The position numbers and the translations under genes were made by a program. Positions 2,896 through 64,000 of a stretch of DNA of 64,000 nucleotides are shown in pieces (position 1 is the first letter of the stretch; each line of letters opens with the position of its first letter). Source of the DNA: a virus (Duplodnaviria > Caudoviricetes); IMG/VR virus record IMGVR_UViG_3300005512_000025, positions 1,863 through 65,862 of that record, one strand, 5' to 3'. The notes beneath the pieces are model-generated. The model saw only the letters and a program-made list of their open reading frames with translations, was not told where the DNA came from and made no database searches.

Positions 2896-3055
2896 CAGAG
2901 GAAGGGGCATGATAGAGCCAGTTAGGAATAAAGTGAAGATACTGATCGGCCCAACCTAGGGCCTTTTTTGTTAGCCGCGTTGTCACTGGCTTAACGATAG
3001 CCTCCATAAATGCTATGGCAACCAAAGTGTCGATAACAACTCTGATGTCGCTCAT
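2846..3055 (-). CDS. Hypothetical protein
   Basis: 69-aa ORF with ATGA overlap to the upstream gene. Confidence 0.5.
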   Translation of the reverse strand: MSDIRVVIDTLVAIAFMEAIVKPVTTRLTKKALGWADQYLHFIPNWLYHAPSSVNCPTDLCQEQKAQDQ

Positions 3056-13980: not shown

Positions 13981-14240
13981 TACCTGCTGTAGTAAACACC
14001 GTCGGCGTAGCTCATCTCGACCCTAGTACCAGCTTGAATCGAGACATACCCCAGGGGCTTTGTGGCGTATGTCTTGCCTTTGTACTTGCACATCCCAGCT
14101 CCATCCTCCCTGAGTTTGACCCAGGTAGCAGTGACGCTACCCTCAAAGTCCCCCTTGATTTCGTTGCCGAAATTCAGGTCCTCCAACATCACCATCCTGT
14201 TGGAGCTGGATCTGTCCATCAGGTCTCGTAAAATACTCAT
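13977..14240 (-). CDS. Tail-region hypothetical protein (small beta/OB-like)
   Basis: 87 aa, ATGA overlap. Confidence 0.65.
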   Translation of the reverse strand: MSILRDLMDRSSSNRMVMLEDLNFGNEIKGDFEGSVTATWVKLREDGAGMCKYKGKTYATKPLGYVSIQAGTRVEMSYADGVYYSRY

Positions 14241-14986
14241 GCCGCGGTGCTGTAGAAGCCGAATTGCTTGACGTTCCAGTAGAACGCAGCTTCGTTGCCA
14301 GCCACCAGGCTGACGGCATTACTGGTCTTGACAACCGTGAACAAGTCACCAGCTGTGGCGTTGGTAGGAGTGTGCACCGTGCTTACAGGGAAGGTCAGGT
14401 CACCAGCTCCAATGGCTGGGTCAAGTCCAGCGAGGGTTGCATTGTTGATCGTCACACTGTCCAGTGCAACATAACCATAGCCAGCCCTGTTAATAGTCAG
14501 GGCGTAGTCAGTCGTAGCAGCACCTGAGTTGGCTACTGTCAGGTCTACAGTGAGACCCACTCCCGAACCAGTGGTAGTGTCTACGGGGATGTTGGTGTAG
14601 GTGGCGTCAGCCATTGATGCGGGTGCCGCGGTAACAGCTCCTAGCGTCAATGCGTTACCATCGCTCCAGACGAGTGCAACATGGCTAAAAGCGATCGGAG
14701 TACCAGATCCGTCGTGAGCGAATACCGTAGCCTTTTGGTTCAGCGGAACACCCCCGTCAGCATAGTTACCCACATCACTGGAACCGTAGGAGATGACGGC
14801 GCGGGCGTAGCCGCCAGTACCGAGAGCCACCTCACCAGCCAGCAGCGTCGCATCAGCGCCAGCTACCGTAGGATCATAGTTATAAGCAGGCAGGTTAATC
14901 AGGCGTGCCTCAAAGTATTGGTCGACGTAACGATCTCGCAAGATGTTGTCGACTTCAGTCGAAGATACCTTGGCTGCAATCGTCAT
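14237..14986 (-). CDS. Tail/baseplate structural protein
   Basis: 249 aa, Thr/Gly/Ala-rich, INRAGYGYVALDSVTI repeat-type motif; late motif at 15008-15017. Confidence 0.7.
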   Translation of the reverse strand: MTIAAKVSSTEVDNILRDRYVDQYFEARLINLPAYNYDPTVAGADATLLAGEVALGTGGYARAVISYGSSDVGNYADGGVPLNQKATVFAHDGSGTPIAFSHVALVWSDGNALTLGAVTAAPASMADATYTNIPVDTTTGSGVGLTVDLTVANSGAATTDYALTINRAGYGYVALDSVTINNATLAGLDPAIGAGDLTFPVSTVHTPTNATAGDLFTVVKTSNAVSLVAGNEAAFYWNVKQFGFYSTAA

Positions 14987-15016
14987 CGTACTGAAGTGTA
15001 GTCGCCGTTAGGGTTC

Positions 15017-18400: not shown

Positions 18401-21163
18401 TCAGCGCAAGCGGCGACGCTTGAGGCGGGTCATCTCGACCATCATGTTGTTCGCGGTTTGGGTGGGATTGCTGGACTGGACTGTGACGTTCTGGTGGAAC
18501 GTATCGCCGCCAGACATGGAGCCCCTGATTGCTCTCACCATTCCAGACATTCCACCGCCACCAGCACGAGCCGCGTTGGCCTTGGCTGCATGGTTCACGT
18601 TAACACCGCCAGTCGGAATGCTCAGCTGTTGTGTTAGGTGGGCGGGGATGACTGTACCAGAGCTGGGGGCCTTCCACTCCCCAAACGCAGGAGCATTGAT
18701 CATGCTCAGCTTTCCGCTAGCAGACAGGAATGCTTCCCTGCCTAGCTCGTTAACCTGGTAGCTAGTACCGCCAGAGACGGGGCCACCAGCAAATCGAGCA
18801 GACAGTCCGCCACTGTCCGAGGTACTGGAAGACCTCTGCGCTGCCTTGGCTGCGTTCAACTGTCGCTGCGCTGCAGCTGCGTCACGAAGAGAGTCCGCCA
18901 GGCGGTCAACTTGAATCTTCGTCGCAGAGTACTCGCCCATCAAGTCATTAACAAGGTTGATCTGTTCGCTCACTTCCGCGTTGGTCAGGTCGATCTCATT
19001 CTTCATGTTCTTGACGCCAGCAGTTGTTTTGTCGATTGCTTCGAGTTCATCTTGTCTTTTGCTCTTGACATCCTCGAGCTGCTGCTTGTTCTCGTCGTAT
19101 TTGGCAATGATGTCATCAACCGCGTCATTGTGTCGCTCCTGTTCAGCCGTTTCTTCTTTTTTCTGCTTCAACCTGAGTTCGGCTTTTTTCGTCAGCGCGT
19201 CTTCGATCTTCTCCTGTTGATTCATCCTGGACAACCTGGCCTGAGCGTTCAGCAGCTCTTCCTGGCTGAGTTTGCCTGAACTAATCTTGGCCTGGAGCTG
19301 TTTCTTGTTGAAATCATACAGGGCCTGCTCCTCCTTCGTCCGCTCCCTGAGCTTCCCGATCTCCATGTCGATTGCGGCCACAGCGGCGTCATAGCGCTCG
19401 CCGATCTCGGTCATGCGGTCCCTGTGTGCTGACTTCTCCTCCTCTTCCTTCTCCTTCAGTCCTTCCATGACTAGCTTAATGCTGTCGATCTCGTCCTGGT
19501 AGCGGCCCTTAATAACTTCTTTCATGGCCTTCAGCTTCTCGACTTCCTTGTCCAGAAGGCCCAGCTTTTCCTCGAGCTCCTTATTCATATCGTTGTAGTC
19601 CTCCACCATCTCCTTTCGACCCGCCTCTTGAGCCAGCAGCTTTTGCGCTGCTGTGATCTCTCCGATCTTACCTGCGGTGCCCTCCATGGCCGTATTCAGA
19701 TCTTCCTGCTCTTCCTTCGCCTGGTTGACTACATGATTAAAGCCAACATAGGCCGCGGCGCCTGCTGCAACTGCGAGCGCAATCTGCCCCCAATTGCCCA
19801 TCAATCCGTTGAAGACAACGGCCGCAGCGTTGGCGACGTTCTGCATGGTCGCGACACCCTGAATAGCGGTTGCAACTAGCTTGATTCCACCAACGATTGA
19901 ACCCCAGTTATTTACGACGAAGAAAGCCGCTGCAGCAGCTGTTGCGCCCACGAAAGCGCCAGCAATCTCAGTAAGGTTCTCGGCAACCACCTTGATACCT
20001 TCGGCGAAGGCCTTCATTGAGCCTGAGACAATACCTCCGAACGCCTTGTCGACTGCATTGAACGTCTCGACCATCTCCTTGGCGAGCTTCTGGAACGAGG
20101 CCTCAATCGCAGCCAGTCGTCCCTGGAAGGTCTCCTGCATACGCTCGGCGATCTCCAGGAAAGCAGAGCCCTCTCCAGTCAAGTTAGTCAAAGCGTCCCT
20201 GACGAGATCAAAACCAATAGCGCCCTCTGAGGCCATCTTCTTGAGTTCAGCCACAGTTTTCCCCGTCACTTTACTCATCTCATCCCAGATAGGAATACCC
20301 TGGATCGCGAATTGTGTTAAGTCACGGGTATAGGCCTGGCCCTGCGCGGCGATCTGTCCAAGGTTTCTAGCAAGCAGATTGATGTCGCCGCCAGTTGCGG
20401 CTGCTACGATACCAAGCTGATTTGTCGCATCAACGGCCTCATCGGTCTCCATCCCGAATGCCATCATGATTTTACCCGCGGTTGCGACCTGCTCCAGGTT
20501 GAAGGGCGTCTGAGCGGCAATCTTCACAAAGTCGTCAAAAGCCGCGTCCGCAGCCTCTGCACTACCCGTAAAAGCCTCCATCTGCAGCGAGAGGACTTCC
20601 ATTCTGCCAGCAGTATCAGCGAACTCGCCAACACCGCGAGCCATTCCCATCAAGGCCCCCGTAGCAGCGTTAGCCAACGTCTGAACCAGAGTAAACTTAC
20701 CGATGACACCTGTCGCTTGCTGTTGGAGCTGCTTAAGAGCTCCCCCGACTGTCATCTTCTTCAGCTCACCCTGAGCCTCCTTGATGCGCTGAGCCACCAG
20801 TTTCCAGTCGCTCGAAACCTTGCCTGTCTTTTCGCTAATCTTTGTTGTATTGCCCTGAATTTCCTTAAGTTTGCTGATCTGTCGCTTAAGTTGATTAGGA
20901 GTCTTTCCCCACTTGCCATTGATCGCGTCAGCGGCCTCCGCCAACCTTTTTGACTCCTGATTAATGTTCTGAACCTTTTTTGCTACCAGTTCACCGTTCT
21001 TTAAGTTGATTTCAACCGTGGTCTGCAAGTCTTGCCCAAAAGCTTTATTTAATTCGCTCTTCGCCTTCGAGGCACCAGCGTCAAAAGCCTGGAAGAACTC
21101 ATTGATCGACGATACGGCCGTGTTAGTATCGACAGCAAGGTTGAAGTTAAGATTTTGCGCCAC
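18401..21163 (-). CDS. Tape measure protein
   Basis: True start GTG 21163 (MAQNLNFNLAVDT), below late motif and terminator; AAQTPFNLEQV...GRQAYTRDL-type core, long coiled coils, C-terminal RFAGGPVSGG..Y.VNELGRE. Confidence 0.9.
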   Translation of the reverse strand: MAQNLNFNLAVDTNTAVSSINEFFQAFDAGASKAKSELNKAFGQDLQTTVEINLKNGELVAKKVQNINQESKRLAEAADAINGKWGKTPNQLKRQISKLKEIQGNTTKISEKTGKVSSDWKLVAQRIKEAQGELKKMTVGGALKQLQQQATGVIGKFTLVQTLANAATGALMGMARGVGEFADTAGRMEVLSLQMEAFTGSAEAADAAFDDFVKIAAQTPFNLEQVATAGKIMMAFGMETDEAVDATNQLGIVAAATGGDINLLARNLGQIAAQGQAYTRDLTQFAIQGIPIWDEMSKVTGKTVAELKKMASEGAIGFDLVRDALTNLTGEGSAFLEIAERMQETFQGRLAAIEASFQKLAKEMVETFNAVDKAFGGIVSGSMKAFAEGIKVVAENLTEIAGAFVGATAAAAAFFVVNNWGSIVGGIKLVATAIQGVATMQNVANAAAVVFNGLMGNWGQIALAVAAGAAAYVGFNHVVNQAKEEQEDLNTAMEGTAGKIGEITAAQKLLAQEAGRKEMVEDYNDMNKELEEKLGLLDKEVEKLKAMKEVIKGRYQDEIDSIKLVMEGLKEKEEEEKSAHRDRMTEIGERYDAAVAAIDMEIGKLRERTKEEQALYDFNKKQLQAKISSGKLSQEELLNAQARLSRMNQQEKIEDALTKKAELRLKQKKEETAEQERHNDAVDDIIAKYDENKQQLEDVKSKRQDELEAIDKTTAGVKNMKNEIDLTNAEVSEQINLVNDLMGEYSATKIQVDRLADSLRDAAAAQRQLNAAKAAQRSSSTSDSGGLSARFAGGPVSGGTSYQVNELGREAFLSASGKLSMINAPAFGEWKAPSSGTVIPAHLTQQLSIPTGGVNVNHAAKANAARAGGGGMSGMVRAIRGSMSGGDTFHQNVTVQSSNPTQTANNMMVEMTRLKRRRLR

Positions 21164-21196
21164 GTCGAGACCAAAGCTACTTATAGCCTTCCCATG

Positions 21197-21221
21197 AAAA
21201 AGAGCCCCCGAAAGGGCTCTT
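21197..21221 (-). terminator. Rho-independent terminator after tail tube extension
   Basis: AAGAGCCC-TTTC-GGGGGCTCTTTT. Confidence 0.8.
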
Positions 21222-21255
21222 GTGGGTTGTGCCGTAAGTATCGCGGTTACGGGCT

Positions 21256-21513
21256 TCAGGCAACGGATGCGACGCGTGCGGTAGCAACACCAGATCCAGC
21301 AGTTTCGCTGATTGTGATGATGTTTCCGACGGCGTATCCTGAACCAGGGGCGGTGATGGTAACTGCTGTAATGTTGCCAGAACCGTCGGTGTCGACGGTG
21401 GCGTCTGCAGCAGTACCGCCTCCCCCAGCGATGTCGACAGCAAGAGCAGAACCAGAAAGCGCAAAGGCTGAGGTAGTGTTCAAGGTGTCGACGGAGGCGA
21501 TACCTCCAGTCAG
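21256..21513 (-). CDS. In-frame C-terminal extension of the tail tube protein (candidate amber readthrough)
   Basis: Same frame as 21514-22080, directly after TAG; LTGGIASVDTL...NITAVTITAPGSGYAVGNIITISE. Confidence 0.6.
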   Translation of the reverse strand: MTGGIASVDTLNTTSAFALSGSALAVDIAGGGGTAADATVDTDGSGNITAVTITAPGSGYAVGNIITISETAGSGVATARVASVA

Positions 21514-22080
21514 CTAAGCCTGGAGAGTCAGGTGGTAAGGACCGTAGCCAGTCAGGGTGCATTCCCAGGACACGATGCTGGTCACTTCGTTGGACTCAGT
21601 GTAGCCAGTCAGGGTGCCGTAGCCAACGATCTCCTCGGTGGTTCCAGTAGGACCAACACGCTTGAAGGCAACACGCAGGCCGTCAGCCACGGTGTTTTGC
21701 TCAGTCAGACGGAGGATCTTGTAGCCAGCGTCGCCGAAATCAGCGATACCAGCAAGGGAGATGCTGAAGCTCTTGGTAGTAGCCACGGACTGGTTGAAGC
21801 CAGAGGTCGCATCATCGTAGGTGTAGATGTCCTCAGTTCCCGTGTCGGTCTCCAGGGAGGCGGAGGTCAGGCCAGACAGACGAACAGCATCGTCGGTGCC
21901 GTCCATGGTGAAGGCCACAGAGTTCACTGTGAAGATACCGTTGCTGTAAGCAACCGTGTGAGCAGCGTCGACGGGAGTAGCGGTGTCAACGGTAGGAGCA
22001 CTAGAGAAGTCCGTGACCAGGCTGTTCTGGACAGGGACGATGTAGAAGTCGTAGCCGAAAGCGGCTGAGAAGTTTGCCAT
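21514..22080 (-). CDS. Major tail (tube) protein
   Basis: 188 aa with high-expression codons; LSGLTSASLETDT...SVATTKSFSISLAG...VSWECTLTGYG, TP901/lambda-like tube pattern. Confidence 0.85.
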   Translation of the reverse strand: MANFSAAFGYDFYIVPVQNSLVTDFSSAPTVDTATPVDAAHTVAYSNGIFTVNSVAFTMDGTDDAVRLSGLTSASLETDTGTEDIYTYDDATSGFNQSVATTKSFSISLAGIADFGDAGYKILRLTEQNTVADGLRVAFKRVGPTGTTEEIVGYGTLTGYTESNEVTSIVSWECTLTGYGPYHLTLQA

Positions 22081-22159
22081 AGTAGAAACGGGAAAAACCC
22101 GTACGAAGGTACCTCGGACCTTCTCGGCCCGTCTATCTTATATTGCCAAAGGGGTGAAA

Positions 22160-22597
22160 TTAGGCTGCCAGAATTGGCATATCGGATCGGATCATGATCT
22201 TGGTCTGGACCAGCGAGCCAAGTCCGTCCGCAGTTGCCACCGTCTGCACCGCCTGAGACCCCAGGAAGCGGCTGCAAGCCCTTTCCGCAGCAGATTGAAG
22301 GTCAGCGCCCTTGGCAGGCTCCCAAGCCACCAGGAAGACGCTCCAGTTGACCGTCAGCCGTGCAGCATCGTTGCTGATATACTCGCTCTTGATGAAGTCG
22401 CCAGCATCCTGGATAATGCACTCAACGCCACTCACGTTGCGCAATGCAGGCATGTCCTCGCCCGCTGAAACGATAGAAATCGCCGTGATCTGCTGACCAG
22501 CCTTGAACTCGTACGTGCCAAGCAGACCCGTAAAGGTAGTATCGGCTGCCAGGACGTCGTAAATCGCCTGTGCAGTTGTCGGGAATTGTTGCGCCAC
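22160..22597 (-). CDS. Tail terminator/completion protein
   Basis: 145 aa upstream of the tube gene; IYDVLAADTTFTGLLG N-terminus. Confidence 0.65.
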   Translation of the reverse strand: MAQQFPTTAQAIYDVLAADTTFTGLLGTYEFKAGQQITAISIVSAGEDMPALRNVSGVECIIQDAGDFIKSEYISNDAARLTVNWSVFLVAWEPAKGADLQSAAERACSRFLGSQAVQTVATADGLGSLVQTKIMIRSDMPILAA

Positions 22598-22719: not shown

Positions 22720-23163
22720 ATGCACTCCTCCCAGGATTTCCTCCCCGTTTATGAGAGGGTTTCAGATTACTTACACAGCATGTCTGCCTTGACTCGCGGC
22801 GAAGCCCGTCGCCAATGGCGCCAATCTATCAAAGACGCCTGGAACAACCGTTGTGCCTATTGTGGCAAGCCTCCAATCGACGACGACAGCTTAACAGTAG
22901 ATCACGTCCGCCCAAAGTCCAGTGGTGGCGAAGACAAGACCAGCAACTGCATCCCCGCCTGCCGTGAATGCAACCAGGACAAGTCATCCCAGCAATGGGT
23001 CGCCTGGTTCCGTATGCAGCCGTTCTATACCATTGAGTCAGAGTGGCGTATTCGCCAGTGGCTGAAGGGTGGCATTCAAGGGTTTGGGCAGTACTCGGAA
23101 GAAGACGCCAGGATCGTCGACCAGTACATCAACGAAATCGGCACCTCCTGGCCTATGGGGTGA
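22720..23163 (+). CDS. HNH endonuclease
   Basis: RCAYCG...LTVDHVRPKSSGG...NCIPACRECNQDK. Confidence 0.9.
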   Translation: MHSSQDFLPVYERVSDYLHSMSALTRGEARRQWRQSIKDAWNNRCAYCGKPPIDDDSLTVDHVRPKSSGGEDKTSNCIPACRECNQDKSSQQWVAWFRMQPFYTIESEWRIRQWLKGGIQGFGQYSEEDARIVDQYINEIGTSWPMG

Positions 23164-63318: not shown

Positions 63319-64000
63319 CTACGCTTGCTCCAGAGCAGAAAGACGAGCTTCTAAGTCACTGTTCTGAGTCTCCAGTGCCTCGATCCGCGCCATTGCCTCT
63401 TGAAGTGCTTTGACAGACTTCATGTAGAGGACGGAGTAGTTGACAGACTTCAAGCCGTCCTCATCGGTGTCGACCAGGCCTGGGGAGACCTCTTCAACCT
63501 GCTGTGCGATAACACCAAGCTGTTTGTGGGTCTGATGACCAGTCTCTTCCTTAAAGTTATAGTTAACGATTTCGATGTCCTTGATGTTGTCCCACTGTTC
63601 AGAGGCAGGAACGATGTTCTCCTTCAGGGTGATGTCGGAGATGGCACCGTAGGAGTTGTTGATATTTTGAACGTCGCCGTTTGAGTAAACCTGCATCGAC
63701 ACTGTGAATTGACCTACTGCTGTGGCCGTGTGGCCGACAATAAATGGCCTAGCAATTGTGCCAGCCGTATCCTCTGTTGTCGCATAAAGCGCATTCTGGG
63801 TTCCTTGAATTACAGTTAAGCCATCCCTATCAATCCTCATCCGCTCCGTCGGGCTGCTGCTTCCGTCGGCAGTAACCGAGAACACTAATCTTGTCGGTTT
63901 ATCACCAGAACCGTGGTCTAAATCAGCTTCAGCTTCAATCCTGGCACCTTCTTCCCACACATTGCCACCTTTACTGAAGAATCGGATTAAACCTAAGTTT
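63319..64000 (-). CDS. Tail fibre C-terminus with peptidase S74 intramolecular chaperone (continues beyond window)
   Basis: SDITLKENI...LGVIAQQVEEVSPGLV...VNYSVLYMKSVKALQE coiled coil. Confidence 0.9.
   Translation of the reverse strand, partial: NLGLIRFFSKGGNVWEEGARIEAEADLDHGSGDKPTRLVFSVTADGSSSPTERMRIDRDGLTVIQGTQNALYATTEDTAGTIARPFIVGHTATAVGQFTVSMQVYSNGDVQNINNSYGAISDITLKENIVPASEQWDNIKDIEIVNYNFKEETGHQTHKQLGVIAQQVEEVSPGLVDTDEDGLKSVNYSVLYMKSVKALQEAMARIEALETQNSDLEARLSALEQA

Follow-up and report, generated by a model that had tools for sequence, protein, structure and literature searches.

The tail tube gene and the frame that continues behind it

The window, which is the whole stretch of 64,000 nucleotides of marine cyanophage DNA analysed here, carries on its minus strand a tail tube gene that ends in an amber codon and is followed in the same frame by a further open segment, a terminator and the tape measure gene. 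The coordinates of these features are collected in Table 1. Among cultured phages, the Synechococcus siphoviruses S-CBS2 and S-CRES1-3 come closest to this phage.

Table 1. Features of the tail tube locus in window coordinates, with the evidence for each.
Feature	Position	Strand	Evidence
Tail tube (major tail) protein CDS, 188 codons	21517..22080	-	PF06199, PHROG 38654, AF2 fold, synteny with S-CBS2
In-frame amber codon UAG, proposed recoding site	21514..21516	-	Sequence; TAG kept in relatives
15-nt linear context U-UAG-CUG-ACU-GGA-GG, with SD-like GGAGG 6 nt past the stop	21503..21517	-	Nucleotide conservation
Proposed 85-codon readthrough extension: short LTGG linker and small beta-barrel repeat domain	21259..21513	-	AF2, BFVD, profile search
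TGA stop of the extended form	21256..21258	-	Sequence
Intrinsic terminator past the extension, ahead of the tape measure gene	21196..21221	-	RNA folding
Tape measure protein gene (probable GTG start at 21163)	18401..21163	-	ORF; synteny with S-CBS2 gp021 and S-CRES gp83

The product of the first gene was identified as a siphovirus tail tube protein by an HMM match above the curated cut-off (PF06199, 26.8 bits against a Pfam cut-off of 23.8), by its tube fold and by the position of the gene just upstream of the tape measure gene. The protein also matched PHROG 38654 'tail protein' with an E value of 6e-65, and the gene is syntenic with S-CBS2 gp019. The AlphaFold model of the 274-aa product that readthrough would give had a mean pLDDT of 85 and matched the tubes of lambda (gpV), 80alpha, T1 and SPP1, lambda gpV being the best match in the PDB.

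The sequence-only reading had placed the codons CAG GCT TAG CTG ACT GGA GGT ATC at the junction, with 85 open codons past the stop and the operon terminator after the extension, not after the TAG. These observations were reproduced. The tube ORF runs from 22080 to 21514 (188 aa and the TAG), the continuing frame closes at the TGA at 21258-21256, and a 9-bp G+C-rich hairpin followed by a U-tract (-18.2 kcal/mol, z -3.15 by folding) lies beyond it at 21221-21196. A simple terminator scan missed this minus-strand terminator and folding confirmed it. S-CBS2 and S-CRES2/3 have equivalent hairpins behind the tube or the extension. The sole in-frame ATG, GTG or TTG of the extension is the TTG at codon 11 (21483), and GGAGGT does precede it by 18 nt. 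Furthermore, the lack of a tRNA gene, which had been noted for the window, holds for the whole 65,862-bp genome, two low-threshold aragorn calls having been disregarded. A search of Rfam over 20900-22400 found nothing.

Two further observations concern the neighbourhood of the tube gene. No G/GT-like gene pair is present between the tube and tape measure genes in this phage group (21164-21255 in the window; related loci L002, L003 and L016). An HNH endonuclease-like ORF of 147 aa (22720-23163, plus strand) lies on the opposite strand within the late operon, at the same position as the HNH genes of S-CBS2 (gp017), S-CRES2 (gp80) and S-CRES3 (gp81).

The use of TAG elsewhere in the genome was also evaluated. 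TAG ends 19 of 92 crudely called ORFs, long structural genes included. At six TAG-ending late genes the stop is followed by G and by a second in-frame stop two codons later. The tube gene has C at this position, as had been claimed, and is the sole gene with TAG-CUG and with 85 open codons behind it. The six late genes share the motif TAG-GNA-(T/C)CC-TA(G/A), often continued by CCCAGCTT, at positions 63321, 24324, 15019, 11845, 11494 and 247 of the minus strand. All six copies are on the late strand and none is on the other. The motif is kept at the homologous junction in relatives, in two of them after another stop, so that besides providing a back-up stop it may serve as a signal between late genes.

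Conservation of the amber codon and of its nucleotide context

The junction of S-CBS2 is the same (AAT TAG CTG ACT GGA GGT ATC GCC) and is followed by an in-frame extension, whose codons 8-85, starting at an internal GTG, carry the annotation gp020, 'structural protein'. S-CRES2 and S-CRES3 are without the extension; their tube gene ends in TGA and the terminator follows directly. Further loci were collected from IMG/VR and JGI metagenomes, duplicates were removed, and the extension was scored as present if at least 75 codons follow the tube stop. The expectation raised by the earlier reading, that homologous tube genes keep both the in-frame TAG and the downstream ORF, was upheld in all 74 distinct extension-bearing relatives. 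The 22 distinct relatives without the extension end in TGA (19) or TAA (3) in every case. Moreover, a census of metagenome junctions for sense codons at the stop position found TAG at 15 of 15 further tube junctions, the other 33 hits being unrelated chance matches. Although chance could give 85 open codons in one genome, it is no explanation for 74 of 74 homologous loci.

A maximum-likelihood tree of 90 distinct tube proteins was employed to follow the extension. Its presence switches at least eight times on the tree, seven of the switches being forced by well-supported branches, and TAG changes at the same places as the extension in seven of seven independent pairs (sign test p 0.016), indicating that the association between the two is not a single inherited accident. 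The conservation of the frame is partly inherited together with the conserved junction. A relative on a 65.8-kb contig (L016/L241) has a tube that is 92% identical, carries no cassette and ends in TGA.

One locus, L039, has an extra in-frame TAG (3052-3054) at tube codon 18, where its near-identical twin L038 has AAG (Lys). Either one base has mutated to give an amber codon in this essential gene, or the reads are in error.

Per-position conservation was calculated for 65 distinct sequences anchored on the TAG. A conserved island extends from -1 to +13, with major-allele frequencies of 0.8-1.0 inside and 0.3-0.7 immediately outside. The codon before the stop ends in T (U) in 65 of 65 sequences, across seven residues (N, A, S, T, G, V and I); where it encodes Asn it is AAT in 23 of 23 cases, compared with 25% gene-wide, and where it encodes Ser it is AGT in 9 of 9, compared with 6%. 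Only CTG (60) or TTG (5) follows the stop. At codon +3, GGA accounts for 59 of the 62 Gly codons as opposed to 17% gene-wide; the codon is GGA, GGG or AGA, whereas GGC and GGT, although they account for 79% of Gly in these genes, never occur there. For comparison, at the 40 tube columns with an invariant residue, the third position has a mean conservation of 0.68 and rises above 0.95 in a single column. Judged from these frequencies, the constraint at the junction acts on the RNA, at the nucleotide level and against codon preference, and not on the protein.

The possibility was considered that a 3' stem-loop or pseudoknot of the MuLV type stimulates the event. This candidate was rejected, because neither conserved structure nor covariation was found; the region from -15 to +75 in 59 sequences had a consensus energy of about zero and no compensatory pairs. 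Likewise, the GGAGG/CCUCC mini-hairpin of the window is not conserved among relatives.

An exact scan of IMG/VR with the 15-mer gave 57 hits, about 44 of which are tube junctions, the rest being chance occurrences with short ORFs. The 15-mer is also present behind tubes only 42-46% identical to that of the window (L124, L133 and L135) and, on a 106-kb contig (L084), behind a tube with a long branch in the tree. It is quite possible, although we propose it tentatively, that the 15-nt string is a self-contained and portable bacterial readthrough signal of a new class, in which the 5' U at the P-site wobble position and the GGAGG in the entry channel are mechanistic, and which phages move about as a cassette. 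Such a signal could work without a suppressor tRNA or RNA structure and could dose different surface domains onto the tail, and the leak rate, hence the adsorption properties, might follow the translation state of the host. The weakness of UAG-C as a termination context, to which the leak had been attributed, may be one cause of it, but the signal extends far beyond the +4 base. GGAGG may also have a role in readthrough.

The added domain, its mobility and its fused forms

When the extension alone was modelled with AF2, the pLDDT was 96.9. The fold begins at residue 3-5, ahead of the sole TTG of the extension in the window, and the first beta-strand covers residues 5-15. The 85-aa domain matched no Pfam family above the cut-off, and Foldseek on the PDB with the extension gave no hit at E<=0.001. 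The best solved structures found by VIA-align were generic barrels resembling EF-Tu domain II/III (Z about 5) and domain I of the T4 sheath protein gp18 (Z 4.4). Ig-like decoration domains (Big_2, FN3, I-set) were looked for in Pfam and among solved structures, and no Ig match to the added domain was obtained. The matches among the predicted structures of BFVD included a Syn5 structural protein (43% identity) and fibre, tail and structural proteins of cyanomyoviruses. A profile search of 1.84 billion representative proteins located the domain in 2802, and many of the proteins that bear it are 1000-7000 residues long with 10-40 tandem copies. Phage fibre proteins commonly contain this domain, a surface repeat module whose use is comparable to that of Ig-like domains.

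A distant second copy of the domain was detected by hmmsearch with the extension profile (E 4e-5) in a tail-region ORF of 256 aa (14240-15007, minus strand), which has no Pfam family.

The identities of the tube and of the extension to those of the window are uncoupled; at one locus they are 95% and 62%, respectively, and at another 57% and 68%. Since the two are uncorrelated, the mosaic tube and extension sequences (loci L004-L083) suggest recombination at the conserved junction. Furthermore, the cargo itself varies. A two-domain cargo of about 187 aa stands behind the 15-mer at L060, L061, L066, L072-L075, L133 and L135, and one of 188 aa at L084. It consists of an unrelated domain of about 95 aa, which had no PHROG or Pfam hit, and then the same 85-aa domain (hhalign probability 98.4%). 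Because the 15-mer precedes different first domains, the bases that encode LTGG belong to the signal or linker and not to one cargo. As far as these sequences can be compared, signal and cargo together act as one cassette, which S-CBS2-like cyanosiphoviruses acquire, lose and exchange.

Natural fusions of tube and domain are rare. Nearly all of about 1000 tube relatives in a catalogue of 5.8 billion proteins stop at the junction. The exceptions are known as protein records only. P0052 (290 aa) joins the tube to the domain through a different linker with no stop, and no close copy of it was found in IMG/VR. P0072 (290 aa, one contig) and P0122 (291 aa, three contigs) read ...AGN-Q-LIGGIATTD..., with Gln at the stop position, and belong to a cluster at 90% identity whose other four members end in ...AGN. 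P0080 is a similar fused record with a garbled end. If these records are real, a covalent fusion of tube and domain is tolerated and Gln (CAG, one transition from UAG) fits the site. tRNA-Gln tends to misread UAG, and the Gln at the stop position of the fused records agrees with this. The rarity of the fused forms also argues that the stop is maintained by selection and that most subunits need to be short.

Proposed amber readthrough, rival explanations and known systems

The earlier proposal was that the tube gene gains its extension by amber readthrough and not by a frameshift. A +1 or -1 programmed frameshift was rejected, since all 74 sequences have the extension in frame 0, and on this point the proposal stands. 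The C-terminally extended tube isoform that it predicted is supported by the TAG, the frame, the 15-nt context, the start-poor extensions, the fold and the rare fusions. A single in-frame stop separates the upstream ORF from a conserved coding segment in the same frame. The downstream segment is mostly without an initiation signal of its own, about 14% of the sequences (including S-CBS2) being excepted, and the identity of the stop and its flanks is conserved beyond coding need. A tail assembly chaperone of the G/GT type was considered separately and rejected, because in close relatives only the terminator separates the tube stop from the tape measure gene and because the domain is a fibre-protein repeat.

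From the sequence comparisons, it is likely that a fraction of ribosomes reads the tube UAG by means of a near-cognate host tRNA and makes a 274-aa isoform, which polymerises together with the 188-aa subunit and places its domain on the tail surface. Most ribosomes would stop at the UAG and release the 188-aa subunit. Some would decode it with a near-cognate host tRNA, for which Gln is the best guess, and continue in frame, thereby adding the 4-residue LTGG linker and a beta-barrel domain of about 80 residues. The resulting 274-aa isoform would co-assemble into the tube with the extra domain outside. The linear 15-nt signal would set the leak, and neither a suppressor tRNA gene nor RNA structure past the stop would be involved. 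That readthrough occurs at all, how efficient it is and which amino acid is inserted, we infer from these features. The extended form is presumably the minority of subunits, and the extension would probably function in surface adhesion.

The extension could instead be a separate small virion protein of 85 aa or fewer that attaches to the virion unaided. Its translation would begin at a downstream GTG or TTG served by GGAGG as SD, or else ribosomes that have terminated would reinitiate at the CUG or UUG next to the stop. Elsewhere in the phage GGAGG does work as an SD, 25 minus-strand GGAGG motifs lying ahead of starts, and gene callers give free proteins of 75-83 aa. In S-CBS2 the GTG at codon 8 lies 9 nt after GGAGG, and this workable spacing is the reason for the annotation of gp020. 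However, a GTG or TTG at codon 8, the sole workable spacing from GGAGG, was found in only 9 of 65 distinct sequences. In this group of about 14%, to which S-CBS2 belongs, ribosomes could initiate independently; the remaining 86% have no start at an SD-compatible distance. Among 62 distinct extensions, at least 13 have no in-frame ATG, GTG or TTG anywhere, and in many others the first one appears only at codon 30-70. The codon after the stop is always YUG, the pattern of a weak start, yet it is never AUG or GUG in 65 sequences, though these are better starts, and the SD lies downstream of it, on the wrong side. Amino-acid conservation begins at the first codon past the stop (LTGGIA...), and the conserved residues 1-10 of the extension make up part of the first beta-strand. 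Moreover, the invariant U before the UAG and the strict TAG would have no role in the synthesis of a separate protein, and natural fused forms exist. A separate protein is thus improbable.

Less probable again, to the point that we would be surprised by it, is a dedicated suppressor tRNA or a reassigned UAG that makes most or all subunits long. Amber recoding is known in other phage groups, and L039 has its second in-frame TAG in the tube gene, but that TAG is a single AAG-to-TAG change relative to L038. The complete 65.9-kb genome has no tRNA gene and one in-frame TAG only, TAG serves as a true end for 19 of 92 ORFs, six of them with a back-up stop two codons on, and a strict 15-nt context would be needless. 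That hard-fused forms are so rare likewise points to a need for the stop. An artefact or a decaying gene, in the form of an assembly error or a recent nonsense split of a fused gene, is what a bare in-frame stop alone would bring to mind, but it can be practically dismissed given that 74 distinct sequences from IMG/VR and isolates, and another 15 metagenome contigs, all have the TAG, and given an extension that is under clear protein-level constraint and folds at a pLDDT of 97. Hardly more credible is stop hopping, in which the peptidyl-tRNA slides over the UAG with no decoding. The invariant U before the UAG hints at a part for the P-site tRNA, and some apparent readthrough could be stop-hopping (review PMC5009743). 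Hopping needs matching codons, however, and the take-off codon varies (GCU, AGU, AAU, GGU, ACU, AUU, GUU) and never equals CUG or UUG.

If amber readthrough is confirmed, it would provide a defined, short and structure-free UAG readthrough context for a bacterium, of use in studies of RF1 competition and in tunable expression tools for cyanobacteria. Hundreds of metagenomic tube genes, as well as gp019/gp020 of S-CBS2, would have their annotation corrected, and the means by which abundant marine cyanophages control the amount of an adhesin-like repeat domain on their tails would become apparent. S-CBS2 is in culture, and readthrough is therefore directly testable.

Programmed readthrough is textbook material for RNA phages and eukaryotic viruses. 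Among the papers searched, none describes readthrough in cyanophages or for a tail tube gene, and we know of no bacterial precedent for the U-UAG-CUG-ACU-GGA-GG context. In Q-beta (Allolevivirus), the coat gene has a leaky stop, and the minority A1 readthrough product enters the virion beside the short form, with no phage suppressor tRNA. The cyanophage would resemble Q-beta in having a leaky-stop structural gene with a C-terminal extension. The differences are that Q-beta is a ssRNA phage of E. coli with UGA in the gene of a capsid protein, whereas the cyanophage is a dsDNA tailed phage with UAG, a longer and different linear context, and a tail tube.

Lambda gpV carries a constitutive C-terminal Ig-like domain on every subunit, with no recoding. 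The two-domain logic and the tube fold are common to gpV and the cyanophage protein, and the fused P0052 has the architecture of gpV; in contrast to gpV, the cyanophage group keeps the stop in nearly all of its roughly 1000 relatives. In amber-recoded phages, TAG is read as Gln by a phage-encoded suppressor tRNA. These phages are similar in the use of UAG as sense in late structural genes, but the cyanophage lacks tRNA genes, has only one in-frame TAG and ends 19 ORFs with TAG as a normal stop.

Leaky stops of eukaryotic systems include the UAG-CAR-YYA of TMV, the UAG with a pseudoknot of MuLV and the human UGA-CUAG. Like the cyanophage junction they are context-driven, with determinants immediately 3' of the stop. 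The cyanophage differs from them in bacterial translation with RF1, in having no conserved 3' structure, in its invariant 5' U and in its SD-like GGAGG. The 'stop-CU' with which its 3' context starts resembles the CUAG motif (10.64898/2026.07.14.738498).

For tailed phages, a 2016 review of recoding gives only frameshift-derived extensions of tail and capsid proteins (PMC5009743). Among these, SPP1 gp17.1* and the major tail proteins of the Listeria phages A118, A500 and PSA have two isoforms from one start, the long one with a C-terminal surface domain (PMC5009743). One difference is that no Ig or FN3 fold match was obtained for the domain added in the cyanophage. Furthermore, the long isoforms of SPP1, A118, A500 and PSA arise by a +1 or -1 frameshift at slippery or hungry-codon sites, whereas the cyanophage extension lies in frame 0 behind a stop codon.
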